52,691 bases of DNA, taken from positions 1-52,691 of the IMG/VR virus record IMGVR_UViG_2872174743_000006, one strand, 5' to 3'. Shown here piece by piece: positions 2,438-48,619 of the stretch. The notes under the pieces were generated by a model, which was not told the origin of the DNA, made no database searches, and saw only the letters and a program-made list of their open reading frames with translations. The stretch comes from a virus. Lineage: Duplodnaviria; Heunggongvirae; Uroviricota; Caudoviricetes. Within the stretch, counting starts at the first letter, position 1. Every line of letters begins with the position of its first letter. Made by a program: the position numbers and the translations under genes.

Positions 2438-2815
2438 ATGGACGAACAGTGGGGATACGTCGGGGCTAAATCGCGCCAGCGCTGGCTGTTTTACGCGTAT
2501 GACAGGCTCCGGAAGACGGTTGTTGCGCACGTATTCGGTGAACGCACTATGGCGACGCTGGGGCGTCTTATGAGCTTGCTGTCACCCTTTGACGTGGTGA
2601 TATGGATGACGGATGGCTGGCCACTGTATGAATCCCGCCTGAAGGGAAAGCTGCACGTAATCAGCAAGCGATATACGCAGCGAATTGAGCGGCATAACCT
2701 GAATCTGAGGCAGCACCTGGCACGGCTGGGACGGAAGTCGCTGTCGTTCTCAAAATCGGTGGAGCTGCATGACAAAGTCATCGGGCATTATCTGAACATA
2801 AAACACTATCAATAA
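2438..2815 (+). CDS. insB: IS1 InsB frame (expressed as InsAB' by frameshift)
   Basis: [25 protein letters not shown]... downstream of insA in the -1 frame. Confidence 0.8.
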
Positions 2816-3261
2816 GTTGGAGTCATTACCTGCATGGGGATGTCCTACAAAGGAACACCTTCTTCCACACTTTCTGGAACATGTAGGTAACAACCATCTG
2901 GATATTGGTGTTGGAACTGGGTTTTACCTTACTCACGTACCTGAGAGTAGTCTGATATCTTTAATGGATTTGAACGAAGCTAGTCTGAACGCGGCATCTA
3001 CAAGGGCTGGGGAATCAAAAATTAAACATAAAATTAGCCATGATGTTTTTGAACCTTATCCCGCGGCGTTACATGGTCAATTTGATTCCATTTCCATGTT
3101 TTACCTTCTTCACTGCCTGCCTGGAAATATATCTACAAAAAGCTGTGTAATACGCAATGCGGCGCAGGCGTAAGCGTACAGCCTGAACCGTCTGGTCAGA
3201 ATCTGACGAATTAGACAAAGTGGTGTCCACCAAATAAGTAGTGGGAACCAAAGTGTCAGAT

Positions 3262-3641
3262 ATGCAGAAAAATGTGAATCCCGGCAGGCGAAAAGGCTGC
3301 CCTAATTATCCTCCCGAATTTAAACAGCAGCTCGTTGCTGCCTCCTGTGAACCCGGGATATCCATCTCAAAACTTGCTCTGAAAATGGCATTAACGCCAA
3401 TCTGTTGTTCAAATGGCGACAACAATGGCGCGAGGGAAAGCTGCTATTACCTTCTTCAGAGAGCCCCCAGCTACTTCCTGTGACTCTCGATGCAGCTGCC
3501 GAACAGCCAGAATCGCTCGCAGAGGATCCGGAAACCCTCAGTATCAGCTGTGAGGTAACGTTCCGGCACGGGACGCTCCGCTTCAATGGCAATGTCAGCG
3601 AAAAGCTCCTGACTCTGCTGATACAGGAACTGAAGCGATGA
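3262..3641 (+). pseudogene. IS66-family tnpA with apparent frameshift
   Basis: N-terminal part MQKNVNPGRRKGCPNYPPEFKQQLVAASCEPGISISKLAL and C-terminal part FKWRQQWREGKLLLP... are in different frames (ORFs 3241-3483 and 3405-3641). Confidence 0.55.
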
Positions 3642-3985
3642 TCCCGTTACCTTCCGGGACCAAAATTTGGCTGGTTGCCGGTATCACCGATATGAGAAAT
3701 GGCTTCAACGGCCTGGCGGCAAAGGTGCAGACGACGCTGAAAGACGCTCCGATGTCAGGTCACGTTTTTATCTTCCGTGGGCGTAATGGCAGTCAGGTAA
3801 AGCTCCTCTGGTCTACCGGCGATGGACTGTGTCTGCTGACCAAACGGCTGGAGCGCGGCCGCTTCGCCTGGCCGTCAGCCCGGGATGGCAAAGTGTTCCT
3901 CACACCGGCACAGCTGGCGATGCTCCTTGAAAGTATCGACTGGCGGCAGCCTAAAAGACTGCTTACGTCCCTGACTATGTTGTAA
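3638..3985 (+). CDS. IS66-family TnpB
   Basis: 115-aa ORF MIPLPSGTKIWLVAGITDMRNGFNGLAAKVQ... Confidence 0.8.
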   Translation: MIPLPSGTKIWLVAGITDMRNGFNGLAAKVQTTLKDAPMSGHVFIFRGRNGSQVKLLWSTGDGLCLLTKRLERGRFAWPSARDGKVFLTPAQLAMLLESIDWRQPKRLLTSLTML

Positions 3986-4033
3986 GCCTCTTTATCCTGG
4001 TCGACGCTGAATGAGCCTGGTAATATACCCGGT

Positions 4034-5572
4034 ATGAGCAGCTCACTTCCTGACGATATCAATGCACTGAAACGTCTCCTTGCCGAACAGGAGGCGCTGA
4101 ACCGTGCCCTGCTGGAAAAGCTGAACGAGCGTGAACGCGAAATAGACCATCTGCAGGCACAGCTGGATAAGCTGCGCCGGATGAACTTCGGCAGCCGCTC
4201 CGAAAAAGTCTCCCGTCGTATCGCACAGATGGAAGCTGACCTGAAGGCACTTCAGAAAGAAAGTGATACCCTTACCGGTCGGGTTGACGACCCGGCCGTG
4301 CAGCGCCCGCTGCGTCAAACCCGCACCCGCAAACCGTTCCCCGAATCACTCCCCCGCGATGAAAAACGGCTGCTGCCGGCAGCGTCATGCTGCCCGGAAT
4401 GTGGAGGCTCACTGAGCTATCCGGGTGAGGATGCCGCCGAACAGCTGGAGTTGATGCGCAGCGTCTTCCGGGTTATCCGGACTGTACGTGAAAAGCATGC
4501 CTGTACTCAGTGCGATGCCATCGTGCAGGCCCCCGCGCCTTCACGGCCCATCGAGCGGGGTATCGCAGGACCGGGGCTGCTGGCCCGCGTGCTGATCTCA
4601 AAGTATGCAGAGCACACCCCGCTGTACCGCCAGTCTGAAATGTACGGCCGCCAGGGCGTGGAGCTGAGTCGTTCACTGCTGTCGGGCTGGGTGGATGCAT
4701 GCTGCCGGCTACTGTCACCGCTGGAAGAAGCGCTTCAGGACTATGTGCTGACTGACGGTAAGCTCCATGCTGATGACACGCCTGTCCCGGTGCTGTTGCC
4801 AGGCAATAAGAAAACGAAGACCGGGCGGTTATGGACCTACGTTCGTGACGACCGTAACGCCGGGTCAACGCTGGCGCCGGCGGTGTGGTTCGCTTACAGC
4901 CCGGACAGAAAAGGCATCCATCCGCAGACCCATCTTGCGGGGTTCAGTGGTGTACTGCAGGCGGATGCATACGCCGGGTTCAACGAGCTGTACCGGGATG
5001 GCCGGATAACGGAAGCCGCCTGTTGGGCTCACGCCCGCCGTAAAATCCACGATGTGCACGTTCGCACCCCGTCAGCCCTGACGGAGGAAGCGCTGAAACG
5101 GATCGGCGAACTGTACGCCATCGAGGCAGAGATAAGGGGAATGACGGCGGAGCAGCGCCTTGCCGAACGTCAGTTGAAAACGAAACCGCTGCTGAAATCC
5201 CTGGAAAGCTGGCTGCGTGAAAAGATGAAAACCCTGTCGCGACACTCAGAACTGGCGAAAGCGTTCGCATACGCCCTGAACCAGTGGCCGGCGCTGACGT
5301 ACTATGCAGATGATGGCTGGGCTGAGGCGGACAATAACATCGCTGAAAATGCGTTGCGGATGGTCAGTCTGGGCCGCAAAAACTACCTGTTCTTCGGTTC
5401 GGATCATGGAGGAGAGCGGGGAGCGCTGCTGTACAGCCTGATCGGGACGTGCAAACTGAACGGAGTGGAGCCAGAAAGCTACCTCCGCTATGTACTTGAC
5501 GTCATAGCCGACTGGCCGATAAACCGGGTCGGCGAACTGCTCCCCTGGCGCGTAGCACTGCCGACTGAATAA
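4034..5572 (+). CDS. IS66-family transposase TnpC
   Basis: 512-aa ORF with N-terminal coiled coil, Cys cluster (CPECG...CTQCD) and conserved C-terminal region. Confidence 0.85.
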
Positions 5573-33498: not shown

Positions 33499-35121
33499 TT
33501 ATGATGATGCCGGTGCATTTATCTCCAGCACCAGACTTTCTATCTCAACGCCATACGCTGCATTTTTGGTAATATCCGTCAGCGTCAGTGCATTTAGTCC
33601 CACTGCCAGACTGTCTTTTATGGCCTGGAATGCCGGGCCAGCCACTCCATTCAGTTTCGGAGTAACCGTGGCACTGCCGGCGGTGAACACCAGCTCCAGC
33701 GTCTGCCAGTCGTTACTGTAATTCCCGAACTCGCCCAACTTTGTGTTTCCGGCTTTCTTGTGATGCATCAGATTCCGTTTGCCGTCTGTGGTCTGGGTGA
33801 AGAACGACATCAGGAACGGGTTACCAGTCCCGGTCATCGCCACGACGTCAGGTAACGCTACATCGGTATACAGATAAATTCCCAGACCGAACTGATTGTT
33901 GGTCAGTGCGCCTGACAGTCGAAACTTACAGCTCAGTCTGCCACCCCGTGTCAGCAGGGAGACTGCGTCATCCACCGGGCGCGTCAGGGACCAGGCTTTA
34001 TTGCTCTGCTTGGCGATCTTAAATACACCACCCGACAACTGAATTCCGCCGTCCTTAATGGTCCAGCCCTGCGCAGCAGCCTCTCCGGCTGTCGGCAGCA
34101 GGGAGATTGTGCGAACGGACGTATCTGCAGACGGACCCGATGGCGTGTCGCCGCCGGGCGAGGGTTTGATTTCCGGTGCCTTACCACTGATGAAGGCTGA
34201 GGTGCGCCCGGCTGCGTTCAGAATAGCGGTTGCCATACGATCGGGAATAATGCCACGACGCGCCCATGAGCTGAAATTTGTCGGGCGATTTGATGATACC
34301 CAGTTTTTGTTCGTTCGGGATGCCGAACCGTAATAACCAGACCCGACAATATCAGGATCTTCTGACGGGTTGTTTGTCGGTGTATTAACTCCGCTACCAT
34401 CGGTCATAAAGGGAACAAAATAAATCTGCTGGGATTCTTTACCTTTATATGCACCATATACCACTTCATATTGCGTACCGTGTTCTTGTTTCCACGCGTA
34501 TGTCGTGTCGCCACAAATCCAGGGGACTGTTGCCGGACTTCCACCGTGACACTGCGCCGCCAGCCCGGCAAGGTCAGCACGGAACTGCTGTACCATTGCA
34601 AGAAATGCTGCTGGCTGCTGGGCGTAACTGGCATTCGTCATATCGAATTCCCCCTGCATCCAGCATATCGCCAGCAAAACGTTTTTCGGGTTTTTCTGCA
34701 ATGCTGCCTTCGTGCGGAAAAGCAGATCCTGATATAACGGCTTACCCACTCCCCAGCGAGCCGAATCCTGACTGGCCCCCGTGGACTCGCTGAATGTCCC
34801 CTCCGTGCCCTGGGTGAATGCAGAACCACCACGGCAGCACGGAACCAGAAGAATACCGGCATTCGCCGGAATAAACGGCAACAATTTCTTCGCGATATGT
34901 AATCCCTGCCCCACGCATCCATACTGAGCTGCGCTGGCTTTCGGGTGTGAAAACTTACTCAAATCCTGAACATCATGCAGGCAGTGGTCCGCAGGAATAA
35001 TGTCATTGTAGTTACAGGACGCACCACCCGGCGTGACAGTGCTGCGACGCGCCAGCTGTTTAATACGCGGGTCCGGACGGTCATATGTCTCCGGCAGCGG
35101 AAGCCCTTCACCGTAAGCCAT
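33499..35121 (-). CDS. NanS-p-like sialate 9-O-acetylesterase (SASA domain)
   Basis: 540-aa ORF at the position this gene occupies downstream of the stx locus in Stx-phage backbones, preceded by a DUF1737 ORF. Confidence 0.65.
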   Translation of the reverse strand: MAYGEGLPLPETYDRPDPRIKQLARRSTVTPGGASCNYNDIIPADHCLHDVQDLSKFSHPKASAAQYGCVGQGLHIAKKLLPFIPANAGILLVPCCRGGSAFTQGTEGTFSESTGASQDSARWGVGKPLYQDLLFRTKAALQKNPKNVLLAICWMQGEFDMTNASYAQQPAAFLAMVQQFRADLAGLAAQCHGGSPATVPWICGDTTYAWKQEHGTQYEVVYGAYKGKESQQIYFVPFMTDGSGVNTPTNNPSEDPDIVGSGYYGSASRTNKNWVSSNRPTNFSSWARRGIIPDRMATAILNAAGRTSAFISGKAPEIKPSPGGDTPSGPSADTSVRTISLLPTAGEAAAQGWTIKDGGIQLSGGVFKIAKQSNKAWSLTRPVDDAVSLLTRGGRLSCKFRLSGALTNNQFGLGIYLYTDVALPDVVAMTGTGNPFLMSFFTQTTDGKRNLMHHKKAGNTKLGEFGNYSNDWQTLELVFTAGSATVTPKLNGVAGPAFQAIKDSLAVGLNALTLTDITKNAAYGVEIESLVLEINAPASS

Positions 35122-35154
35122 GGCATTGGACTGCCCGGCCAGGGCAACAACAAA

Positions 35155-35388
35155 TTAATACTCCGGGTTGCTGGTGGTGCTGATAACTGCGCCTTCTCCA
35201 TCCGACGGCTTCACCACCACAGGTGTGGTGACATCACCTTCCGCCGCAATGGCCTGCATCAGGGTATAAGGCGTGATGGCCACCGGACTGCCAAATGGCT
35301 GCCACCCCTCCTTCAGTTTTTGTGTCAGTCGCTCCGCAAGGTCTGACGGCGACGCCGCCCTGACCACGTCATAGTGTTTAAATGCCAT
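35155..35388 (-). CDS. DUF1737 small protein
   Basis: 77-aa ORF MAFKHYDVVRAASPSDLAERLTQKLKEGWQPFGSPV... directly upstream of the esterase. Confidence 0.55.
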   Translation of the reverse strand: MAFKHYDVVRAASPSDLAERLTQKLKEGWQPFGSPVAITPYTLMQAIAAEGDVTTPVVVKPSDGEGAVISTTSNPEY

Positions 35389-35850
35389 AAATCCTCCCGG
35401 CCTGGATAATATTGTGAGTAAAATGAGGAGCGGGCTGAAGTCCGGAAGTTACAGGACAATGGCAGAAGATAGACAACAGCCCGCAATATGAAAAAGGCCG
35501 CGCTATTGCGCAGAGTGATTACTGTCGGATATTATTCACCAGCTGAAATATTACTTCACGTTTTGTTGTTTATTCCTTGCCGCCCGCGTCTCCCAGCGCG
35601 GGCTTTTTTTGTCCATAAGAAAGCCCCTCCGGAGAGGGGCTGGAGAGTGGCGCTATGTGCCATTGCATGGTGCCGGGTGCCTCCCGGTGAGTTCAGTATC
35701 AGCACCTGAACCCGCACAGAAAGGATAAGGGTCGGTGACAAAACACCAGTTGCTGATTGCCCCTCCGCACAGGGGGATTCACCATGCCAGTTTCTTTTAA
35801 CAAACTCCCCGCAAACCAGACAACAGTCAACCGCCTGAATTGTGAGACAT

Positions 35851-35889: not shown

Positions 35890-35966
35890 TGTGGCGCGTT
35901 CTACTGTATTCGAACCAGTGACCGATTGCTTAGAAGGCAATTGCTCTGTCCGGCTGAGCTAACAAC
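35890..35966 (-). tRNA. tRNA-Arg (anticodon UCU), argU-like
   Basis: Cloverleaf readable by hand: TAGCTCAG...GAGC D-arm, anticodon loop CTTCTAA, TTCGAAT T-loop, encoded CCA; one acceptor and one T-stem mismatch. Confidence 0.55.
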
Positions 35967-35979
35967 GCAGGATACAGAT

Positions 35980-36056
35980 AATGAACCGCCTTCGGGGACC
36001 CGAACTCCGCGCAACCAGCTTCGAAGGCTGGCGCTCTTTCCTGATGAGCTAATGGC
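35980..36056 (-). tRNA. tRNA-Arg-like (anticodon UCG), possibly degenerate
   Basis: D-arm and anticodon arm (loop CTTCGAA) canonical, but T-loop reads TTCGGGT, stems have mismatches and the 3' end reads TCA not CCA. Confidence 0.4.
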
Positions 36057-36063
36057 GGTATGT

Positions 36064-36139
36064 GATGGTGGCCCTTGCTGGATTTGAACCAGCGACCTGG
36101 CGATTATGAGTCGCTCGCTCTCACCACTGAGCTAAAGGG
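36064..36139 (-). tRNA. tRNA-Ile2 (anticodon CAU), ileX/ileZ-like
   Basis: GGCCCTTTAGCTCAGTGGTGAGAGCGAGCGACTCATAATCGCCAGGTCGCTGGTTCAAATCCAGCAAGGGCCACCA; closely resembles E. coli tRNA-Ile(CAU) as recalled. Confidence 0.7.
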
Positions 36140-36190
36140 CCGGGAGCAAAATAATAATGGTGCGTAATTAATTCTGCAATCTCATCCGTT

Positions 36191-37240
36191 TCAAACGATT
36201 AAATCCTGAACTTCCCTGACTGTCTGCTCAAAACGTCCGGTCTCCAGTTCAACGCCAATCGCACGACGCCCGAGCGCCAGTGCCGCTTTTACCGTTGAAC
36301 CTGAGCCCATAAAAAAATCTGCAACCTGGTCTCCCGGACGACTGCTCGCGTTGATTATCTGCTGCAACATTTCTGCCGTTTTTTCGCACGGATGTTTCCC
36401 TGGATAGTACTGCACCGGTTTATACGTCCACACATCGGTGTACGGCACCTGCACCGTCACACCGAAATACCTCCGCAAATTTTTATATTCACTCTGCAGC
36501 TCCACATACTGCCGGCTCAGCTCACTGTATGTGCTGACCAGTTGGTAATGGGACTTTTCCAGTTCTCCCCGCTGATGTTTCTCTTCTGCCACCCGGGCAA
36601 ACAGCGACTGTAATTTCAGATAATCGCTTTCGTTCGGTAGCTGCCACTGACTGGCACTGAACCAGTGCGACACCATGTTTTTCTTTCCTGTGGCATCTGC
36701 AATCTGTTTTGCCGTTATCCCCAGGGCAGCTCGCGCATCACGAAAGTAAGCAATCAGCGGGGCCATCACATGCTGTTTCAGTACCCTGCCCTTCGCCTCA
36801 TAGCCATCATCTTTCGGGCGGTACGGCCCCTGATAATGTTCCGCGAACAGAATGCGCTCTGTGGCGGGGAAATACGCCCGCAGGCTTTCCTTGTTGCACC
36901 CGTTCCAGCGTCCGGACGGCTTTGCCCAGATAATATGGTTCAGCACACTGAAGCGTTCACGCATCATGATTTCGATATCAGATGCCAGGCGATGACCACA
37001 GAACAGGTAAAGACTTCCGGCAGGTTTCAGCACCCGCCAGAACTGCGCCAGACACTGGTCCAGCCACTTCAGGTAATCATCGTCGCCCTTCCACTGGTTA
37101 TCCCAGCCCTCAGGCTTCACTTTAAAGTACGGCGGGTCCGTGACTATCAGGTCAACAGAATTTTCGGGTAACGACCGGATAAATTCCAGGCAGTCGGCGT
37201 TGATTAACTCACAACTGGATATTTTTACAGTATTAGCCAT
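36191..37240 (-). CDS. DNA methyltransferase (N6-adenine/N4-cytosine family, DPPY motif), orphan
   Basis: 349-aa ORF with DLIVTDPPY motif and C-terminal SAM-binding FFMGSGST; no restriction endonuclease gene adjacent. Confidence 0.7.
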   Translation of the reverse strand: MANTVKISSCELINADCLEFIRSLPENSVDLIVTDPPYFKVKPEGWDNQWKGDDDYLKWLDQCLAQFWRVLKPAGSLYLFCGHRLASDIEIMMRERFSVLNHIIWAKPSGRWNGCNKESLRAYFPATERILFAEHYQGPYRPKDDGYEAKGRVLKQHVMAPLIAYFRDARAALGITAKQIADATGKKNMVSHWFSASQWQLPNESDYLKLQSLFARVAEEKHQRGELEKSHYQLVSTYSELSRQYVELQSEYKNLRRYFGVTVQVPYTDVWTYKPVQYYPGKHPCEKTAEMLQQIINASSRPGDQVADFFMGSGSTVKAALALGRRAIGVELETGRFEQTVREVQDLIV

Positions 37241-37391
37241 AGATCAATAAGCACTTCTCTGATAGGCTCATACCGCTTTTGCGCAAAGCAGATGGGCCTG
37301 AGGTTTGCTTGTGACCCCAACGCATGAGCAGATGGCTGGTGGGTGCCCCTAACACCCACCAGCCGCCCATTTACCACAAATAAAAAAGCCT

Positions 37392-37676
37392 TCACTGCGG
37401 AAGGCGTCTGTAACAACCGAACTGATAGTCTGCCAGACCCGCCATAACCAGCTGGGTCAGTATTAACTGGCAGCGTTCGCGTGAAAGGTAAGTATTCTGC
37501 GCAATCTCCCCGACTGTCGCCGGTTCGGTGACGCTTAATTCATTAAACACCACTCTGGCGGTTTCTGTCATATCCTGCTGTTTCAGCATGTCTTTTTCCC
37601 TTTTCCGGTTAACGTGACACACCAATAACTCTTGTCGAAAAAGCCAGCAAGCTGAAAGACAGGTATTCACCGCCAC
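37392..37676 (-). CDS. hypothetical small protein, possible winged-helix
   Basis: 94-aa ORF (alternative start MLKQQDM at about 37589); stop overlaps a minus-strand hairpin plus T-run. Confidence 0.35.
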   Translation of the reverse strand: MAVNTCLSACWLFRQELLVCHVNRKREKDMLKQQDMTETARVVFNELSVTEPATVGEIAQNTYLSRERCQLILTQLVMAGLADYQFGCYRRLPQ

Positions 37677-37937
37677 CAGCGCGTTTACTGTACTGACGCG
37701 ATTTCAGTCATAAAAAACCCGCCAGGCGGCAGGTTTAAGCTGTATGACGGAGTGACCAATCTTAACAGATTAAGATGGTTTTTGTTATAACACAAATCAT
37801 TTCCTCGGTATCTTTATATCCCTTATGTTTCAATCGCCATAGATACTAGACTGGCCCCCTGAATCTCCAGACAACCAGTATCACTTAAATAAGTGATAGT
37901 CTTAATACTAGTTTTTAGACTAGTCATTGGAGTACAG

Positions 37938-38303
37938 ATGATTGATGTCTTAGGGCCGGAGAAACGCAGACGGCGTACCACACAGGAAAAGATCGCAATT
38001 GTTCAGCAGAGCTTTGAACCGGGGATGACGGTCTCCCTCGTTGCCCGGCAACATGGTGTAGCAGCCAGCCAGTTATTTCTCTGGCGTAAGCAATACCAGG
38101 AAGGAAGTCTTACTGCTGTGGCCGCCGGAGAACAGGTTGTTCCTGCCTCTGAACTTGCTGCCGCCATGAAGCAGATTAAAGAACTCCAGCGCCTGCTCGG
38201 CAAGAAAACGATGGAAAATGAACTCCTCAAAGAAGCCGTTGAATATGGACGGGCAAAAAAGTGGATAGCGCACGCGCCCTTATTGCCCGGGGATGGGGAG
38301 TAA
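37938..38303 (+). CDS. insC: IS2 InsC (OrfA)
   Basis: [47 protein letters not shown]... Confidence 0.85.
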
Positions 38304-39166
38304 GCTTAGTCAGCCGTTGTCTCCGGGTGTCGCGTGCGCAGTTGCACGTCATTCTCAGACGAACCGATGACTGGATGGATGGCCGCCGCAGTCGTCACAC
38401 TGATGATACGGATGTGCTTCTCCGTATACACCATGTTATCGGAGAGCTGCCCACGTATGGTTATCGTCGGGTATGGGCGCTGCTTCGCAGACAGGCAGAA
38501 CTTGATGGTATGCCTGCGATCAATGCCAAACGTGTTTACCGGATCATGCGCCAGAATGCGCTGTTGCTTGAGCGAAAGCCTGCTGTACCGCCATCGAAAC
38601 GGGCACATACAGGCAGAGTGGCCGTGAAAGAAAGCAATCAGCGATGGTGCTCTGACGGGTTCGAGTTCTGCTGTGATAACGGAGAGAGACTGCGTGTCAC
38701 GTTCGCGCTGGACTGCTGTGATCGTGAGGCACTGCACTGGGCGGTGACTACCGGTGGCTTCAACAGTGAAACAGTACAGGACGTCATGCTGGGAGCGGTG
38801 GAACGCCGCTTCGGCAACGATCTTCCGTCGTCTCCAGTGGAGTGGCTGACGGATAATGGTTCATGCTACCGGGCTAATGAAACACGCCAGTTCGCCCGGA
38901 TGTTGGGACTTGAACCGAAGAACACGGCGGTGCGGAGTCCGGAGAGTAACGGAATAGCAGAGAGCTTCGTGAAAACGATAAAGCGTGACTACATCAGTAT
39001 CATGCCCAAACCAGACGGGTTAACGGCAGCAAAGAACCTTGCAGAGGCGTTCGAGCATTATAACGAATGGCATCCGCATAGTGCGCTGGGTTATCGCTCG
39101 CCACGGGAATATCTGCGGCAGCGGGCTTGTAATGGGTTAAGTGATAACAGATGTCTGGAAATATAG
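38261..39166 (+). CDS. insD: IS2 InsD (OrfB transposase)
   Basis: 301-aa ORF with IS3-family DDE region, ending ...[16 protein letters not shown]. Confidence 0.85.
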
Positions 39167-39189
39167 GGGCAAATCCAGTAACTGTTCAT

Positions 39190-39597
39190 TTATCTTGAAT
39201 CATTTTCGTGATTCATATAGCAATCCATTTCTAAAGATACCTCGAGCATTGCCAGACACCCTTCAACAAACCCTTCAGCTTTCTGCAATCTAATAACAAC
39301 TTGATTAAGCGATATCCCCATTTTCGCCCCTAACGCTCGTAATGTGATCCCATATACATAATACATTTCCAGTAATTGGTATTGATATGGTTCCTTTTTC
39401 TTGAGAACTGCCATAACTGAACTAATGATAAGACCATCATCATCGCAACATTGCGGTCGATATTTTACTTTTGAGGGGATGAGGCCTTTAAACCCCGCAG
39501 CAATTGGCGACCAACTAACATTCTCATGATTATTTGCCGCCCATGCTCCCCAGCGTTCGAGAACCATCTGAATATCACGCATCAACTTTCTCCACAA
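39190..39597 (-). CDS. Q: late-gene antiterminator Q (phage 82/21-type family)
   Basis: 135-aa [23 protein letters not shown]...RPQCCDDD...[16 protein letters not shown]..., at the Q position. Confidence 0.65.
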
Positions 39598-39599
39598 AA

Positions 39600-40619
39600 T
39601 CAGGACAGCACACCTATCGCCAGCGCGCGATCGATAAAACGAAATATCAGCTCCAGTTGGGAACCATACTTCTCTTCAAATGCCACGGTATCCGCATGCA
39701 GTCCGTCATGGTGTTTTCTGCACAAAGGCAACACAAAAAGGTCATGCGCTTTTGTACCCATTCCACCCTGACCATGACCAATCAGGTGATGAGGATCGTC
39801 GGCTGGCTTACCACAACATGCACACGGCTGCGTCTTAACCCAGCGCGTGTACTTTTCATTAACCCAGCGACGACGTTTGGGGCGTAACATAAAAGACTCC
39901 GGCGACTCCGGATCCACTTTCAGCGCCAGCACCTTTTTCGCCTTATCCCGGATGATGCTGGTGGCAGGAACCGAAGGCACAAGGTCACTTTCCCGGGTGA
40001 CAGACGGCACAACAGGCTTCGGTAATCTCAGTGCCTTACGGGCTGCACTTTCCGGTAAGGCATCCGCCAGGTCATTACGAACCAGCCACCAGCACAGTTC
40101 CGGCATTGTCACAACGTGGCTGTCATCAAAACCGAGATCACGACGGACTACGGACAACACCCAGCGGGCACAGTTATCCGTTGCCATTGATTCCAGACGT
40201 TCCGTGAACTGATCGCGAAGCAGGTTATCGCAGTGCCAGCACAGACGGATTGCGCCCGGCGCGTGTCGCATTGTGGTCATGTTCTCGCTGTGCCATCCGG
40301 AATGAGGCCACTGGCAGCCTTTTTCACGAAGTAACCAGCTCTCAAGGCATTCCACGCCACCAGCACGACGGATCACCGCCTCATGGCGGAACACGGCCCG
40401 AACGGCAGGATCATCCGCCAGCGGTTGTGATGCTGCCGGAACGGCACCACTGGCAAAAGATGAATAACGTTCCGGCTCAGGCTCCAGCAGGACACGCCCC
40501 TGCATAAACAGGGGCATCAGCTCTGAACCGGGTCTGAACAAGACGATCCCCATACGCGGGGCAATTTCAGGGGTCAGCAGTGCTCTCACGGTCACCTCAG
40601 CAAACGATATTGAATGCAT
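39600..40619 (-). CDS. DUF968-family nin-region protein with C-terminal HNH-like Cys/His motif
   Basis: 339-aa ORF; C-terminus ...[39 protein letters not shown]. Confidence 0.5.
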
Positions 40620-40640
40620 ACAGAGAAAAAAACTCAGTCA

Positions 40641-40898
40641 TCACGCAGTAAACTCCTTCACCAGCGTTTCAAACTGGCTTACCTGTCCTTCCAGTTCCGC
40701 CACGCAATCCACCAGCTCATCCACCGCCTTTTGTGTGCGGTGTTTTGCCTGCAGCAGATCACGAAGCGCCGGAGTAAGCTGCTTGCGGAGCGTATCTTTT
40801 TTCACGCTCGTTTTTTCCATCTGTTCAGCACAACGAAGCATCTCCTGCGCCTGCCGACGAAGTTGTTCCGGTGAAACAGTGATTGTTCTGTTGTTCAA
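40641..40898 (-). CDS. hypothetical coiled-coil protein
   Basis: 85-aa ORF between the helicase and DUF968 genes; stop-start overlap with dnaB-like gene. Confidence 0.4.
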   Translation of the reverse strand: MNNRTITVSPEQLRRQAQEMLRCAEQMEKTSVKKDTLRKQLTPALRDLLQAKHRTQKAVDELVDCVAELEGQVSQFETLVKEFTA

Positions 40899-42295
40899 AA
40901 TAAACGCTCCGTTTTACTGCCCGACATGCGGTTATTGCTGTATCTGCGCGGATTGCCCGGCGTCATGGGTGTGGAAAGAACCCGGGCACTCTCCTGGTCC
41001 ACAGGCAGAAAATGTCCGTTATGAAAACGCCGGTAAATGGTCCCGAGTGTGCCATTACGCTGTTTCGTGATGTTGATTTCTGCTATGCCTCTGGCCTGTG
41101 TATCCGGGTTATACACCTCATCCCTGTAAAGCATCAGAATGATGTCGGCATCAGCCTCTATTTCCCCGGAGTTTTTCAGGTCTGAGTTCATGGGACGTTT
41201 ATTGGGTCTGGATTCCACGCCTCGGGAGAGCTGGCTCAGAGCAATCAGCGGGAAACCGCCGGATTTTGCCAGGCTTTTAAGTCCCTTTGAGATTTCCCCC
41301 ACAGCAAGGTCGTGACGCCCCGTGCTGCGGGTTTTAATCAGACCGAGGTAATCGACCACCACCAGCGCCGTTTCCGGATGCTTCATCCGGTGGTACCTCG
41401 TGGTTGCACATATCTCATCAATTGTTAGATTTGCCTGGTCCACCATCCAGATATTACGCCCCGTCATTCGTCCCACGCCCTGCGAGAAACGAGCCCAGTC
41501 TTCATCTTCAAAACGGGCAACAGACTTAAGACGGGATACCGGCATTCCACCGGCAGTAGACACCATACGTTCACCAATCTGGATGTTCGCCATCTCCATG
41601 GTGAACAGAAGCACGCCATGCCCCTGCTCAGTCACCTTGTCGATGATGTCCAGCGCCAGTTCGGTTTTCCCCATCGAAGGACGAGCCGCAATGAATACCA
41701 GGTCGCCTGGCTCCATCCCCCCTGTTTTTGCGTCCAGTTCATTAATACCAGTCATCAGTGTTCTGGATTTCTCCAGTCCCTGATTCCGGCATTCAACACG
41801 GCCCACCACTTCCGGAAGGACATCATCAATGTGAACCGGCTGAATGACGCCCTTTCCGGTCGACAGTGAGGCCATCATGTTCTGCGCATCCTTCAGGGCA
41901 TCCTCGGCTGCTTCACAGGTATACGCATCACGTAAATTCTGTAATGCTTCAGTCAGTGTTTTTTCTGCATCACGCAGTGCGGCATTGCGCCGCAACGCTG
42001 CGACATAGTGCTCCAGTGAAGACTTCACCCAGGTTTTGCGTCCGGTGTCGGTAATCACCGGGGCAAGTTCCGGCATCTCATTGCACAGCAGTACGGGGTC
42101 AATGACGCCGGATATGCGAGCCTGTCTGCAAATCCCCGCGTAAATATCCCGGTACTGACGCACAAAAAATACATCCGCCGGAAGTGTGGCCAGAATATCC
42201 ATCACTTCCGGATCGGCCCCACGCAGAAAAAACGCACCGATGACAGCGCCTTCCAGGTCATCGTTACGCCATGCCGGGGTGTTCTGGCTGGTCAT
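40895..42295 (-). CDS. DnaB-like replicative helicase
   Basis: 466-aa ORF with Walker A (ARPSMGKT) and RecA-like fold motifs. Confidence 0.85.
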   Translation of the reverse strand: MTSQNTPAWRNDDLEGAVIGAFFLRGADPEVMDILATLPADVFFVRQYRDIYAGICRQARISGVIDPVLLCNEMPELAPVITDTGRKTWVKSSLEHYVAALRRNAALRDAEKTLTEALQNLRDAYTCEAAEDALKDAQNMMASLSTGKGVIQPVHIDDVLPEVVGRVECRNQGLEKSRTLMTGINELDAKTGGMEPGDLVFIAARPSMGKTELALDIIDKVTEQGHGVLLFTMEMANIQIGERMVSTAGGMPVSRLKSVARFEDEDWARFSQGVGRMTGRNIWMVDQANLTIDEICATTRYHRMKHPETALVVVDYLGLIKTRSTGRHDLAVGEISKGLKSLAKSGGFPLIALSQLSRGVESRPNKRPMNSDLKNSGEIEADADIILMLYRDEVYNPDTQARGIAEINITKQRNGTLGTIYRRFHNGHFLPVDQESARVLSTPMTPGNPRRYSNNRMSGSKTERLF

Positions 42296-43200
42296 GCGGC
42301 AACACCTCCGATACGAGAACGGTAGCTGGGCCAGTTAAACGACAACCAGTTGCGCCCGCCATCGGTGATCCTGTCGGCAATCCGGGGACTGATGAACGCC
42401 CACAATTCTTCCGGTGAAAGGTTGCTGATCAGGATAGTTGGCAAAATACCCTCATACCGGGCATTGATAATTTCCTGCAAAATGGCCATTTCAGCCGCAC
42501 TGCCAAACTGAACGCCGACTTCGTCGACAATCAGCAAATCCAGTGACGCATAATGCTCAATGACGTCATCCGCTGTTTTTTCACTGTCATTCCGCCAGCA
42601 GTTTTTCACAGCCCGGGTAAGGCGCATCACGTCGGTGATCTCCACACTGGCCAGATAGTTACGGATGATGTGTTTTGCCATTGATACCGCCAGATGATTT
42701 TTCCCGGTACCGCAACTGCCGGTCATAACAAGACTGGTACCGTTCTCCAGCATATCTGGCCAGTTCTCCGCATAGCGGCGACAGGCCGCAAGATTTCTGG
42801 CTGCGTCAGGATTAACCTCCAGATAATTATCAAACTCGCAGTCCCGAAAACGCAGAGCAATTCCGGCGTTATCAGTCAGTTCTTCCGCCTTAAGGGACGA
42901 CAGTTCCATGGTCAAATCACTGGCCTCAGCGATCAAGCAGTCAGGGCAGCATGAAATTTTTTCTCTGTCCTCGCCATTACGATCGATCCACACCAGTATA
43001 TGCGTACGATATTTACCGTGTTTTTCGCAATATCCGCGACCTTCACGCATCAGGCAGGAACGATAAGGCCATGGCTTTTCGCCCTTCTGAGCAAATGCAA
43101 TCTCTGCCCGTAACTCATCCATTTCTGCCCGTAACTCATCCATTCGCGCCTGTAGTCTTGTTTGTTTCTCACGTTGGTCAATCGTCATCATCGCTGTCAC
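42292..43200 (-). CDS. DnaC/IstB-like helicase loader
   Basis: 302-aa ORF with Walker A (TGSCGTGKNHLA) and Walker B (LLIVDEVG). Confidence 0.8.
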   Translation of the reverse strand: MTAMMTIDQREKQTRLQARMDELRAEMDELRAEIAFAQKGEKPWPYRSCLMREGRGYCEKHGKYRTHILVWIDRNGEDREKISCCPDCLIAEASDLTMELSSLKAEELTDNAGIALRFRDCEFDNYLEVNPDAARNLAACRRYAENWPDMLENGTSLVMTGSCGTGKNHLAVSMAKHIIRNYLASVEITDVMRLTRAVKNCWRNDSEKTADDVIEHYASLDLLIVDEVGVQFGSAAEMAILQEIINARYEGILPTILISNLSPEELWAFISPRIADRITDGGRNWLSFNWPSYRSRIGGVAA

Positions 43201-43201
43201 C

Positions 43202-44026
43202 TCAGAATGTCAATTTGTTACTGGATTTACCGAATTTGTCAGACATGGCTCCCAGGCCAGCCAGGACATCGACCTGTCGCTGTCGCCCACCTCCGTGAGC
43301 GGCTGGCTGTTGCCAGTAATCTTCGAAGTGACGATCGGGTCCAAAGAACGTCGCAGCCTGCTTCACGAACTGTGTGCCGGTATTTCCTGTAGCACGTACC
43401 CAGGCGGCATACCGCTTCACGCCATCAAGCATGGTCTCCGGTTTTATTCCCTCCCTGATACGGGCTTTCCAGGCTTTGAAGGCTGCTGACTTGGAATTGC
43501 CACCAGCACGTTTGGGATATTCCTGCCAGGCCTGTTCAAATTCCGGTGAATATTCCTGTCTGGCAGAACGCGCTGGTGCAGACGCGTCAGCGGATGCGCC
43601 AATAGTTGATTCATTGACTGGTTCTTTGACTGGTTCAAAAGAGTGACTGGTTCTGGGTGAATCTCCTGCACTACCCCCTGGTGCAACTCCTACACCACCT
43701 GGTGAATTTGCTGCACTAGGTAGTGAATTATTTGCACTACCACCTGGTGAATCTTTTGCACCATCAAGACGAAGAAGATAAATATTGCTCGAGTTCCCTT
43801 TTTCACCTTTCCGGGAAACTTTTTTTACCAGTCCAGATTCACAAAGAGCCGTAATATAATTCATCACAGAACGTTTGCTAATCTCGCACTGATCAGCAAT
43901 ATGCTGATAGCTGGGCCAGCACTCGCCCTGATCGCTGGCATTATCAGCCAGCTTAATCAGAACCAGTTTTCGCAACGGATTTCCCACACGAATTTTCATC
44001 GCTTTCACCATCAGCTCCATGCTCAT
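43202..44026 (-). CDS. replication initiator (O-like) with internal origin
   Basis: 274-aa ORF with N-terminal winged-helix domain, Pro/Gly/Ser linker encoded by the iterons, conserved C-terminal domain. Confidence 0.7.
   Translation of the reverse strand: MSMELMVKAMKIRVGNPLRKLVLIKLADNASDQGECWPSYQHIADQCEISKRSVMNYITALCESGLVKKVSRKGEKGNSSNIYLLRLDGAKDSPGGSANNSLPSAANSPGGVGVAPGGSAGDSPRTSHSFEPVKEPVNESTIGASADASAPARSARQEYSPEFEQAWQEYPKRAGGNSKSAAFKAWKARIREGIKPETMLDGVKRYAAWVRATGNTGTQFVKQAATFFGPDRHFEDYWQQPAAHGGGRQRQVDVLAGLGAMSDKFGKSSNKLTF
43645..43765. repeat. replication origin iterons (about five ~22-bp direct repeats) inside the initiator gene
   Basis: Repeats on the consensus cctGGTGAAT-yyyy-TGCACTAcc, followed by an AT-rich stretch at about 43766-43835. 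Confidence 0.6.
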
Positions 44027-44247
44027 AACACACCTCCCAGGCGTTTAAACATTTTTCCAGACAGAAATACCGCCAGAGGGTAACTGATGGTGTAGCTACG
44101 CCCCTGTAGTTCGCACACGACTTTCTGGCTTTCAGCGTTGACTAGGCAAACCCGCAGAACGTGACCGTTGCTGGTGGCGAACCACTGCCCCACACGGGGG
44201 CAACGGTTGTATCGGTGATACAGGGAATTAACGATGTGGCGGATCAT
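44023..44247 (-). CDS. hypothetical protein
   Basis: 74-aa ORF with stop-start overlap to neighbours in the early-right operon. Confidence 0.35.
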   Translation of the reverse strand: MIRHIVNSLYHRYNRCPRVGQWFATSNGHVLRVCLVNAESQKVVCELQGRSYTISYPLAVFLSGKMFKRLGGVL

Positions 44248-44438
44248 GGACGCACCTCCGCCGTAGTTACGTATTTAACCGGGCTACCTTTCATTGAGAT
44301 GGTTTCACACATCTCTGCCGCTTTCAGTTCCGCTGTTTTTCTGGATTTATAGCGACGGTGCCAGACAGATACATCCGTGCGAACTGATACATCGTTTCTG
44401 TATTCCGTAGTGGAGATGATGATTTCGTAACTAATCAT
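44244..44438 (-). CDS. hypothetical protein
   Basis: 64-aa ORF with stop-start overlap to neighbours. Confidence 0.35.
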   Translation of the reverse strand: MISYEIIISTTEYRNDVSVRTDVSVWHRRYKSRKTAELKAAEMCETISMKGSPVKYVTTAEVRP

Positions 44439-44986
44439 GGGCGAACCTCCTTGTCAGAACCATTCAGCCTGGAATCAACAAGTGCAGCGCCAAAAACAGC
44501 ATCACCAACACGGTCGTACAGTTTGCTAGCCAGCGGAGATTCAATGGCCTTAAGCATTGGATAAAGCTGGCTTGTCCAGATTTGATGGATTTCACGCAAA
44601 TGCAGGTATACGCCTCTGGCGTTTCGTGCGACAGCTGACATATCAACCGCGTCAGCACCAGATAAATTCTTCTCCATCTGGTTAAAGGCGTTGATGTATG
44701 CCTCTTTGAACCGGGCTGCACGTTTGCCAGTAAAGCCCATAGCAAGGAACGCGAAGCCATCACGGGTGATTTGATAGCAAGGTAGTTTGCGGCCTGTGCA
44801 ATCGGTGTAATCACTCACCGAAAAATTGCGGGCAGTGAATGATGCGGAGCATTCAAGCGTGCGGATCTTTTTCAGTACATCGTCATGACGCTTGGAGAAG
44901 AAGTTGGCAACAGCCAGGGATGAAGTAACAGCCTGACCATCAACGATGGCAATTTCAGGTTGAGTGAGGGTTGGGATCGTAGCCAT
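44435..44986 (-). CDS. Rha-family phage regulatory protein (second copy)
   Basis: Start set at MATIPTLTQPEIAIVDGQAVTSSLAVANFFSKRHDDVLKKIRTL; the upstream 100 codons of ORF 44435-45286 are low-complexity and not used. Confidence 0.55.
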   Translation of the reverse strand: MATIPTLTQPEIAIVDGQAVTSSLAVANFFSKRHDDVLKKIRTLECSASFTARNFSVSDYTDCTGRKLPCYQITRDGFAFLAMGFTGKRAARFKEAYINAFNQMEKNLSGADAVDMSAVARNARGVYLHLREIHQIWTSQLYPMLKAIESPLASKLYDRVGDAVFGAALVDSRLNGSDKEVRP

Positions 44987-45370
44987 GATGGCAGCCTCCG
45001 TTGACTGTGGAAAACTTCCACCACCGGAGCTGCGAAACTCACTGGTGGCAGACTGAACAGGGTTCGCAGTACCGGCGTCAACGGAGACCGGCGAGCCTTT
45101 CGGCTCCCCTGCCCAGCCCACCATAATTCTGGCGTGCGTGAGCGCGGACGATAAAAAAGACGCTGGCGCGTCATATATCGCCGTTGACAATTCCGGGCTG
45201 CGACCCCCGGCACCCACTTTATAAGGTGCAGAGACAGTGTAACGTCCCGAAATTGCAGAATCAATATTTGGTCTTGAAATGATCATATAGCTGCTGATAT
45301 CTTTAGAACTGTTCTTGGATGTTTCGGAGCCGTTTTATGCGAAACAGCTCCCCGTTATTGATGTTGAGTG

Positions 45371-45395
45371 AGCCGGGTTACTCCCGGCTTTTTTT
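45371..45395 (+). terminator. rho-independent terminator on the plus strand
   Basis: AGCCGGG TTACT CCCGGCT followed by TTTTTT; the minus-strand version has no U-run. Confidence 0.5.
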
Positions 45396-46102
45396 CACCG
45401 CTGCCAACCAATAACCTGAAATAACCCCATTTTCGGGTGATACCAGCGAGTCCCTCGCGGTTCTGCTTCCTCCATAACCCGATAAAAAGCAGCCATAAAC
45501 GGTTCCACAGCAACAATTGCGCGACGTGACAACAATCCGTCCGGCGTCATGAACTCATGGGTGTCTGTAGGAATCTGATAGGCGTTCACCAGATTGCGGC
45601 ATTTATCATCTGACAAACCGGTTTTTGCTTTCAGTTGGCGATATCCGGCATAGCCCTCACGAATAGTGCCCTTTTTAATTTGCTCGACTGTTTCAGCAAC
45701 GTGGCTGACTTTTTCTTCCACCTGAGTGATCCGTTTCTGCTGACGAACTGCTTCAAGAGCCATCGCGGCAACCATTTCGATTTCGCTCATTGGCTTACGG
45801 ATCTGTTCTTCCAGTTCGCGCCAGCGATCTACCAGGCGAGCAGTGAATTCAGGACAGAGCTGTGCGACGACAATGATGCTGTCGCGCTTACCTTGTTCTC
45901 CTTCAAACAGGTAATGCTCATATTGAACTTTAAAACCTAAGTTATTGATTCTTTCGGAAACCTCAATTTGAGGAGACCGGACAACGCCACCTTTGGCTAA
46001 TGTTTCAATAGTGCGTTTCACATTGTCATGACGTTTACCCACCAGCTCTGCGATCTCAACGCTGGTCATGGATGCTTTGCCGTTAAAAATTGCGGTGTTC
46101 AT
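45395..46102 (-). CDS. Rha-family antirepressor-like protein
   Basis: 235-aa ORF; N-terminus ASMTSVEIAELVGKRHDNVKRTIETL matches the Rha domain. Confidence 0.6.
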   Translation of the reverse strand: MNTAIFNGKASMTSVEIAELVGKRHDNVKRTIETLAKGGVVRSPQIEVSERINNLGFKVQYEHYLFEGEQGKRDSIIVVAQLCPEFTARLVDRWRELEEQIRKPMSEIEMVAAMALEAVRQQKRITQVEEKVSHVAETVEQIKKGTIREGYAGYRQLKAKTGLSDDKCRNLVNAYQIPTDTHEFMTPDGLLSRRAIVAVEPFMAAFYRVMEEAEPRGTRWYHPKMGLFQVIGWQR

Positions 46103-46326
46103 TGTTGGTCTCCTGTGGGCTTGTCATCTTCTGTATTCGCTAGACTTGGGTGTGTATATGGAATGCTCGGATCCAGATGACAAAGAATGGCAACATCCTC
46201 CGGAACACCTCGCGTTTTCCACTTTCCAACACCTTGACTGCCACGAGGCCTTCCTTTCTTTGGGAACCTGCGACCAATAGCGGCATTGGTTTTAAATTGA
46301 ATTTTTAATATTTCATAAAGGGTCAT
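46099..46326 (-). CDS. hypothetical protein at the cro position
   Basis: 75-aa ORF divergent from cI by 112 bp, coupled to the Rha gene; no recognisable HTH. Confidence 0.3.
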   Translation of the reverse strand: MTLYEILKIQFKTNAAIGRRFPKKGRPRGSQGVGKWKTRGVPEDVAILCHLDPSIPYTHPSLANTEDDKPTGDQQ

Positions 46327-46437
46327 TCTTTAGTCTCACACCAGATACTTTGTTATCCAACGATGTTAACCGCAAGAATCCAAAGTATCAAGATATTCTG
46401 TTACTTTAGTATCAACAGCCATGAGAGGAGAAGAAAA
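46327..46437. promoter_or_regulatory. OR-like operator/promoter region
   Basis: Inverted motifs GATACTTTG (46344-46352) and CAAAGTATC (46381-46389) plus related TTACTTTAGTATCAA. Confidence 0.35.
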
Positions 46438-47094
46438 ATGAAGTCTTTAGGTGAACGTCTCATCAACGCACGGCAAAAAGCTGGGTTAACACAAGATGCG
46501 TTGGCTAAAAAAGCTGGGATCACCAGAGTTGCAATCAGTAAAGCCGAGCAAGGCCTTACAAAAAGTTTCAACGGTGACACCCTTTTTAAAGTTGCAGCTG
46601 CACTGCGGTGTTCACCGCAGTGGCTTCAGAACGGAGATGAAAAAGATAAGCATTGGGAAAATAATGTTAAGAGCTGCCCACAGAGAGACACAGCACACTC
46701 TTACCCTGTAATTAACTGGGTTCAGGCAGGATTATTCGCAACTTCTGGTGATGACTACAACATGTATGATCAGGATAATTGGAGGCATTCTGTAAAATAC
46801 GCTGGTGAGAGGGGGTTCTGGCTGGAAGTGCACGGTGACTCAATGACTTCGCCCGTAGGAATAACATTTCCTGAAGGAATGTCGATCCTTGTCAACCCAG
46901 ATAAAGAAGTTTTTTCAGGGTGTTACGTCATCGCCAGAAAAAAATCCACCAATGAAGCAACATTCAAAAAATATATTTCTGACATGGGAAAGGCGTTTCT
47001 AAAGCCCCTTAATCCACAATATCCAATCATAGAAATGGACAATGATTGCGAAATAGTAGGTGTTGTGGTTGATGCCAGGTGGGATATTTTCTGA
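46438..47094 (+). CDS. cI: CI-like repressor (HTH_XRE plus S24 LexA-like peptidase domain)
   Basis: Start set at MKSLGERLINARQKAGLTQDALAKKAGITRVAISKAEQG (GAGG RBS); C-terminal ...HGDSM... with downstream Lys. Confidence 0.8.
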   Translation: MKSLGERLINARQKAGLTQDALAKKAGITRVAISKAEQGLTKSFNGDTLFKVAAALRCSPQWLQNGDEKDKHWENNVKSCPQRDTAHSYPVINWVQAGLFATSGDDYNMYDQDNWRHSVKYAGERGFWLEVHGDSMTSPVGITFPEGMSILVNPDKEVFSGCYVIARKKSTNEATFKKYISDMGKAFLKPLNPQYPIIEMDNDCEIVGVVVDARWDIF

Positions 47095-47197
47095 CCAGAC
47101 ACAAAGCACAAAAAGAAAACAAAGTATCAAAAATCACTTGTCACACCTTGATACCTTAGTTACCATAAAACAAAGTTCGTAACTGAGGTATCATCTC
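47095..47197. promoter_or_regulatory. OL-like operator/promoter region
   Basis: Contains CAAAGTATCAA (47120-47130), also present in the OR-like region, plus inverted TTGATACC. Confidence 0.3.
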
Positions 47198-47442
47198 ATG
47201 TTCAATAAAGCTACAACTCTTGACTGTCTCGAAGAACTGAAAAACCTCGGCAGCCTCATTACACTAATAGCAAAAGCAACACCTGATGCTACGCTCTCTA
47301 GCGATATAGAGTCATGCGCAGGACTGGCATGGGATATGACAAATAGCATATCCAGAAAGCTATCGTCAGCAATGCTTTTACAGAACAAAAATTCTGCAAT
47401 CAACAACCGTCTTCGCACCCAACGCGAAGCCTGCGGCTTAAC
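47198..47442 (+). pseudogene. first early-left gene, truncated by IS911
   Basis: ORF MFNKATTLDCLEELKNLGSLITLIAKATPDATLSS... runs into the IS911 end at 47443. Confidence 0.4.
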
Positions 47443-47450
47443 TGAAGTGG

Positions 47451-48619
<1,169 letters not shown>

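Follow-up and report, generated by a model that had tools for sequence, protein, structure and literature searches.

The window – the whole 52,691-nucleotide stretch analyzed here, from the caudoviral IMG/VR record IMGVR_UViG_2872174743_000006 – contains an intact gene at 39190-39582 (minus strand) that encodes a 130-amino acid Q antiterminator, allele Q-A. The protein matched all 118 positions of the PF06530 profile (E=3.9e-49), which is the Q21 family (Yin et al. 2022, PMC9388147), and the Q21 structures 6P18 and 6JNX (E=1.5e-8). The gene follows the nin/DUF968 region and precedes the late genes. A collection with one genome per species contained no close copy of Q-A (best match 62% identical), and the Q of the Escherichia coli SCU-105 prophage (WP_001204795.1) differs from it by a single amino acid at a variable position (Y41/F41).

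Three downstream features, all on the minus strand, frame the region discussed below. A 65-amino acid winged-helix-like ORF with a weak TrmB match (37392-37589; E=0.0026) is the first gene after the predicted late promoter cassette. It is followed by a DNA methyltransferase gene (36191-37240), part of a conserved downstream module, and by three tRNA genes with CAT, TCG, and TCT anticodons (35892-36141).

An IS2 copy and a missing gene next to Q

The Q stop codon (39190-39192, minus strand) is separated from an insertion sequence by 12 nt (39178-39189, minus strand; ATGAACAGTTAC). This element is a 1331-bp IS2 of the IS3 family that occupies 37847-39177 on the plus strand, antisense to phage transcription. 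A preliminary description of the locus had placed an IS2 11 bp past the Q stop; the element is indeed a full-length IS2, though the gap is one nucleotide wider. Its ends read TAGACTGGCCCCC... and ...GGGGCAAATCCA and include the terminal inverted repeats of IS2, and both the terminal sequences (TAGACTGG...AAATCCA) and the length are those of E. coli IS2. The overlapping orfA (37938-38303, plus strand; HTH_Tnp_1, E=1.8e-19) and orfB (38261-39166, plus strand; rve (DDE), E=1.1e-18) are joined by an A6G motif for -1 frameshifting at 38255, as in E. coli IS2. IS2-like DNA was present in 5369 of the 5426 complete E. coli genomes searched, with a top identity to the window copy of 99.5%, and alignments to other IS2 copies end at 37847 and 39177.

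IS2 usually generates a 5-bp target duplication. We looked for one at the flanks of the window copy and found none (GATAC on the left, GTAAC on the right), a sign that one flank was deleted or recombined. Both flanks were joined in silico and searched against complete E. coli genomes. The joined sequence matched 49 genomes over at least 80% of the query (best identity 99.7%), and in every match listed at that coverage the gap between the flanks was ~570-680 bp wider than in the query. Against E. coli SCU-105 (NZ_CP051738.1; locus L002), window position 37846 corresponds to L002 6597 and 39178 to L002 7246, which leaves 647-648 bp (L002 6598-7244/7245) absent from the window. This deletion accounts for the lack of a target duplication, and it concerns the history of the copy, not its identity.

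The absent DNA has two parts. The first is 53-54 nt of the 66-nt spacer that separates Q from the next gene in relatives, of which the 12 nt next to the Q stop survive. The second is that next gene itself, which encodes the 205-amino acid protein WP_032283388.1, except for its final 24 nt. The remaining stump (37823-37846, minus strand) reads VSMAIET* (seven codons and a stop) and is identical to L002 6574-6597. WP_032283388.1 carries a WYL-domain annotation in some genomes, and its matches to the WYL models of Pfam (weak, E=0.01) and PADLOC (E=1.6e-4) led us to call the gene WYL-like. The order Q, WYL-like gene, late promoter cassette was found in ~21 complete E. coli genomes, including SCU-105, and in six IMG/VR contigs. 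The SCU-105 prophage otherwise resembles the window, sharing DUF968, Q, the cassette, the small ORF, the methylase, three tRNAs, and an esterase (flanks 99.7% identical), but SCU-105 and 20 other complete genomes have the WYL-like gene and no IS2, whereas the window has the reverse.

The event at this locus is thus an IS2 insertion together with the loss of 647-648 bp of adjacent DNA comprising nearly all of the WYL-like gene – an ordinary insertion scar, of a known kind, in which the actual genetic loss is an accessory gene. The plain insertion of the preliminary description, with nothing lost, has almost no probability left, for although the element is full length with complete ends, no duplication flanks it, DNA is missing relative to every close relative, and a stump of the lost gene remains. 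The sequence is compatible with two origins of the loss: an adjacent deletion mediated by the IS, or recombination involving a pair of IS2 copies 0.65 kb apart.

A search of 5426 complete E. coli genomes recovered neither IS2-phage junction. The right junction was found in one IMG/VR contig, which is 99.3% identical to window 39162-47459 and breaks inside IS2; no match to the left junction turned up in those genomes, in IMG/VR, or in metagenomes. In strain 266917_2, the WYL-like gene (L002 6574-7191; L044 2404-4359) is itself broken by ISVsa5, which points to a slot between Q and the cassette that takes repeated IS hits.

Two other mobile elements were observed in passing. E. coli 24AR0142 (L001 4222-6379) carries an IS2-like IS3-family element, 95% identical, inside a different and longer Q gene, which is thereby split into two pseudogene fragments. 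At the far end of the prophage, window 2438-5572 contains ORFs of 125, 118 or 115, and 512 amino acids, a layout that is IS66-family-like by ORF sizes only.

The predicted late promoter cassette

Reading the 66-nt spacer and the left flank by eye for promoters gave ambiguous results, and this approach was superseded by a cross-genus alignment and a profile search. We gathered Q relatives from other genera and inspected the DNA 3' of each Q stop. At 19 loci – from Photorhabdus, Xenorhabdus, Trabulsiella, Rahnella, Serratia, Salmonella, and others – a conserved cassette of ~100 nt starts no more than ~30 nt past the stop. Its successive parts are a 5+5 inverted repeat with AAAAAC, a TAnnnT hexamer, the sequence TG(T/A)TAAGAGTG ...CACACAGCTTA, and a hairpin with a U-run. 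An nhmmer profile built from these 19 foreign cassettes had a sole match in the window, at 37794-37703 (minus strand; E=2.9e-12), and a sole match in the SCU-105 locus, at the homologous place; the spacer between Q and the WYL-like gene of SCU-105 gave no match. The same cassette lies 3 nt past Q in those E. coli phages that carry another Q allele (B), including the induced phage PhiR5_1.

The predicted pR'/qut cassette of the window spans ~85 nt (37795-37712, minus strand) and is intact, wholly to the left of IS2, with 51 nt of native DNA kept upstream of the predicted -35. It is 100% identical over 140 nt to its counterpart in the IS2-free relative SCU-105, whose Q, as noted above, differs by one residue. 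The preliminary description had expected pR'/qut within 37731-37846, which proved essentially right, and its minus-strand hairpin and U-run at about 37708-37730 was recovered at 37736-37712.

Aligning the window with the cassette family and the Sakai Sp5 promoter places a predicted pR' -35, TTGTGT, at 37790-37795 (minus strand). The inverted repeat TGTTATAACA, followed by AAAAAC, overlaps it at 37783-37792 (minus strand) and is a candidate Q-binding element (QBE). The predicted -10 is TAATCT (37767-37772, minus strand), in a register where nearly all cassettes have TAnnnT and where Sakai Sp5 has TATCAT. Both predicted hexamers are weak (3/6 each), and a generic promoter scan of the window did not detect pR'. 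Searching the cassette alignment for a sigma-dependent pause element gave no confident assignment of a hexamer with conserved A2/T6, and no Rfam family matched the cassette leader.

The transcription start was placed by homology to Sakai Sp5, in which 257 nt separate the A in TGATAAGAG from the downstream end of the tR' U-tract. This spacing fits the Sp5 pR'-tR' RNA (StxS), which Sy et al. (2020, PMC7547250) mapped as 258 nt long using dRNA-seq and Term-seq, and moving this register to the window predicts a start at the A in TGTTAAGAT (37760, minus strand), 7 nt past the -10.

The cassette closes with a terminator-like hairpin, AAACCUGCC/GGCGGGUUU, and U6 (37712-37736, minus strand) that ends 49 nt past the predicted start. 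The fold of the hairpin (37736-37715) with the U-run to 37712 has a predicted energy of -20.5 kcal/mol (z=-2.9), and compensatory changes occur in the stem in two allele-B phages (L003 and L004). A second terminator-like hairpin and U-run, 3' of the small ORF (37382-37405, minus strand), is an alternative tR'. Doubt about the first hairpin as tR' comes from Sp5, where a hairpin with U7 at ~+27 to +52 of pR' (L127 870-897) is its positional homologue and is evidently read through, since the reported tR' lies at +258. The functional tR' of the window may therefore be 37382-37405, with the hairpin at 37712-37736 a partial terminator; both lie to the left of IS2.

The preliminary description had named the late promoters of phages 82, 21, and 933W for mapping these elements. 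The pR' regions of 933W and Sakai Sp5 belong to the same cassette family as the window (inverted repeat with A-tract, TAnnnT, TGATAAGAG, early hairpin); phage 21 matches in geometry. The Sp5 repeat overlaps the Q stop codon, unlike that of the window, and similarity to StxS does not extend beyond the promoter-proximal box: the Sp5 leader gave no alignment to the cassette region, and its sole blastn-short match in the window is an unrelated 20 nt at 25137-25156. Zhang et al. 2018 (PMC6266700) offered no pR' sequence that could be used for a Q of this type.

For phage 21, we took the QBE from the annotated genome OL657228.1 (the system of Yin et al. 2019). There the order is a -35 from 7 nt past the Q stop, the QBE in the promoter spacer, the -10, the start, and a pause element; the terminator ends at +50 and tRNA genes follow (GenBank OL657228.1). 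Like the window, phage 21 combines a PF06530 Q with a sequence-specific element in the promoter spacer and with tRNA and late genes downstream, and the leaders to the end of the hairpin and U-run are nearly equal (50 nt in phage 21, 49 nt in the window). The two differ in that the phage 21 QBE consists of two tandem 8-bp direct repeats (ATTGAGCA/AATGAGCA) whereas the window element is a 5+5 inverted repeat, in that the cassette profile detects no DNA similarity between them, and in where the cassette starts – 7 nt past Q in phage 21, ~1.4 kb from Q in the window. The shared position in the promoter spacer is one reason for regarding TGTTATAACA as the candidate QBE. A second is that the class of repeat at this position tracks the helix-turn-helix class of Q across ~100 loci.

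Pairing of Q helices with cassette repeats

Inverted-repeat class goes with Q helix-turn-helix class. Helices of the form ISHNQVAKRLQ occur with TGTAATTACA, CSDG.IGKKLQ with TTACGTACGTAA, CSDT.IGKRL with TTACGATCGTAA, and CSEGKIRNRL with TTCGTTACGAA, while the (S/N)E..IRQQ type and its relatives, among them the B allele (SEKAIRIEMQ), occur with TGCG..CGCA. The Q-A helix is nearest to the ISHNQVAKRLQ class (Photorhabdus helix GISHNQVAKRLQSAEGF), and the window repeat TGTGTTATAACA is nearest to the Photorhabdus repeat TGTGTAATTACA. Six IMG/VR contigs encode Q-A and extend far enough downstream for the comparison; every one has TGTTATAACA, and its anchor motif is 739 nt past the Q stop.

The distance between Q and its cassette varies widely. 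Among 80 IMG/VR loci, the pairing of helix and repeat is kept at all distances, namely 14 nt (37 loci, with a 144-amino acid Q type), ~35 nt, ~805-823 nt, and ~1550 nt, a covariation that is confounded by the physical linkage of Q and repeat. CSDG-type Qs keep CGTACG and CSDT-type Qs keep CGATCG at 14, ~35, ~810, and ~1550 nt alike. Extra DNA of ~805-823 nt lies between Q and a helix-matched cassette at four IMG/VR loci (L097, L115, L117, and L122), and extra DNA of ~1550 nt at another four (L060, L062, L080, and L082). In the IS2-free relatives of the window, ~710 nt containing the WYL-like gene already stand between the two. At the level of sequence, these comparisons show that Q-A and the window cassette descend together and that a kilobase-scale interval from Q to its cassette is a common natural arrangement.

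A broader reading is tentative, and we regard it as possible though somewhat short of probable. It holds that an inverted-repeat QBE, a helix code, and a tolerated gap would be branch-wide properties, and that Q-A and TGTTATAACA would form a new specificity pair that survived IS2. The QBE of the 933W-type branch would then be a 5+5 inverted repeat with an A-tract in the pR' spacer, unlike that of phage 21, and the Q recognition helix would read the core of the repeat in a simple code – CSDG with CGTACG, CSDT with CGATCG, ISHNQ with TAATTA, and ISLNQ with TTATAA. Accessory genes and IS elements would have a landing pad in the stretch from Q to the QBE.

The comparison also provides a usable pR'/qut map for a large group of Q21-family prophages, Stx-phage types included.

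Expected effect on late transcription

The Q protein is diffusible and would load onto RNA polymerase at the cassette, so that IS2 most likely leaves Q-dependent late transcription essentially working. That transcription would cover the small ORF, the methylase, the tRNAs, and the lysis and structural genes. In vitro, purified Q21 is active on DNA templates, which indicates that Q acts in trans; together with the natural Q-to-cassette gaps of 0.7-1.5 kb, this leads us to expect that late transcription is affected little or not at all. We therefore consider it likely, on the sequence evidence, that the IS2 insertion and the 647-648-bp loss left Q and its cognate cassette intact and late transcription preserved. 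The preliminary description had suggested that IS2 separates Q from its target region; the element does lie between them, but a gap of ~710 nt is already there in relatives that lack it.

A less favored possibility, which we rate as unlikely, is that the cassette is intact and IS2 nevertheless shifts late expression quantitatively, through a lost cis preference of Q, antisense transcripts, or a Q mRNA with a different 3' end. Lambda Q is reported in the older literature (Echols et al. 1976; Burt and Brammar 1982) to act preferentially in cis, and with such a preference the distance from Q to the cassette could matter quantitatively. The transposase genes read in the direction of Q and on the strand opposite to it, so that transcripts leaving the right end of IS2 would run antisense to that gene. 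The junction also creates a hybrid promoter-like site (TGAACA-17-TATATT; 39188-39160, minus strand) that reads into IS2. Against a quantitative shift stand the ~710 nt between Q and cassette in IS2-free relatives and the gaps of up to 1.5 kb elsewhere, the ISVsa5 copy in the same slot of strain 266917_2, and the persistence of the same right-hand junction in a second prophage diverged by 0.7%. In addition, the promoter scan found no outward promoter towards the cassette.

At the junction site itself, the -35 (TGAACA) belongs to the phage flank and the -10 (TATATT) lies inside IS2, antisense to the transposase. In relatives, this TGAACA may be part of the promoter of the WYL-like gene.

More improbable still is that the true pR' and QBE lay in the 66-nt spacer past the Q stop and were destroyed by IS2 and the deletion, leaving the late genes of the prophage off. 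The spacer of SCU-105 does contain aTGAACA-16 nt-TACAGT, with a direct repeat AGTTACT/AGTTATA inside those 16 nt, at a distance from the stop equal to that of the -35/QBE/-10 of phage 21, and just the first 12 nt are left in the window. The cassette profile, however, is blank there and has exactly one match downstream, where the cassette is of the class that the closest homologues of Q would predict. Other lineages likewise have 0.8-1.5 kb between Q and a matching cassette, and the spacer motif is more simply read as the accessory gene's own promoter.

Returning to the reading we favor, with Q and its cognate cassette both preserved, the sequence indicates for the strain that the prophage can probably still activate its late genes. 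What lies between Q and its target appears dispensable and is often replaced, a point that is relevant to predicting toxin or phage induction by Q or pR' typing.

The downstream region yielded several further observations. The module of hairpin, 65-amino acid ORF, methylase, and three tRNAs is common to more than 1200 complete E. coli genomes. It sometimes follows unrelated Q types, for example a 273-amino acid antitermination protein in E. coli O104:H4 C227-11 (L043 2594-5338), and its mosaic joint lies at the hairpin or just upstream. A full-length Rfam match to the small RNA STnc100 (35611-35816, minus strand; 143 bits, E=9.8e-33) lies between the tRNAs and a NanS-p-like sialate esterase gene (SASA/DUF6645; 33499-35388, minus strand). 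The esterase gene has an in-frame stop after codon 77 that divides it into ORFs of 77 and 540 amino acids; its SCU-105 homologue is an intact 617 amino acids and 84% identical.
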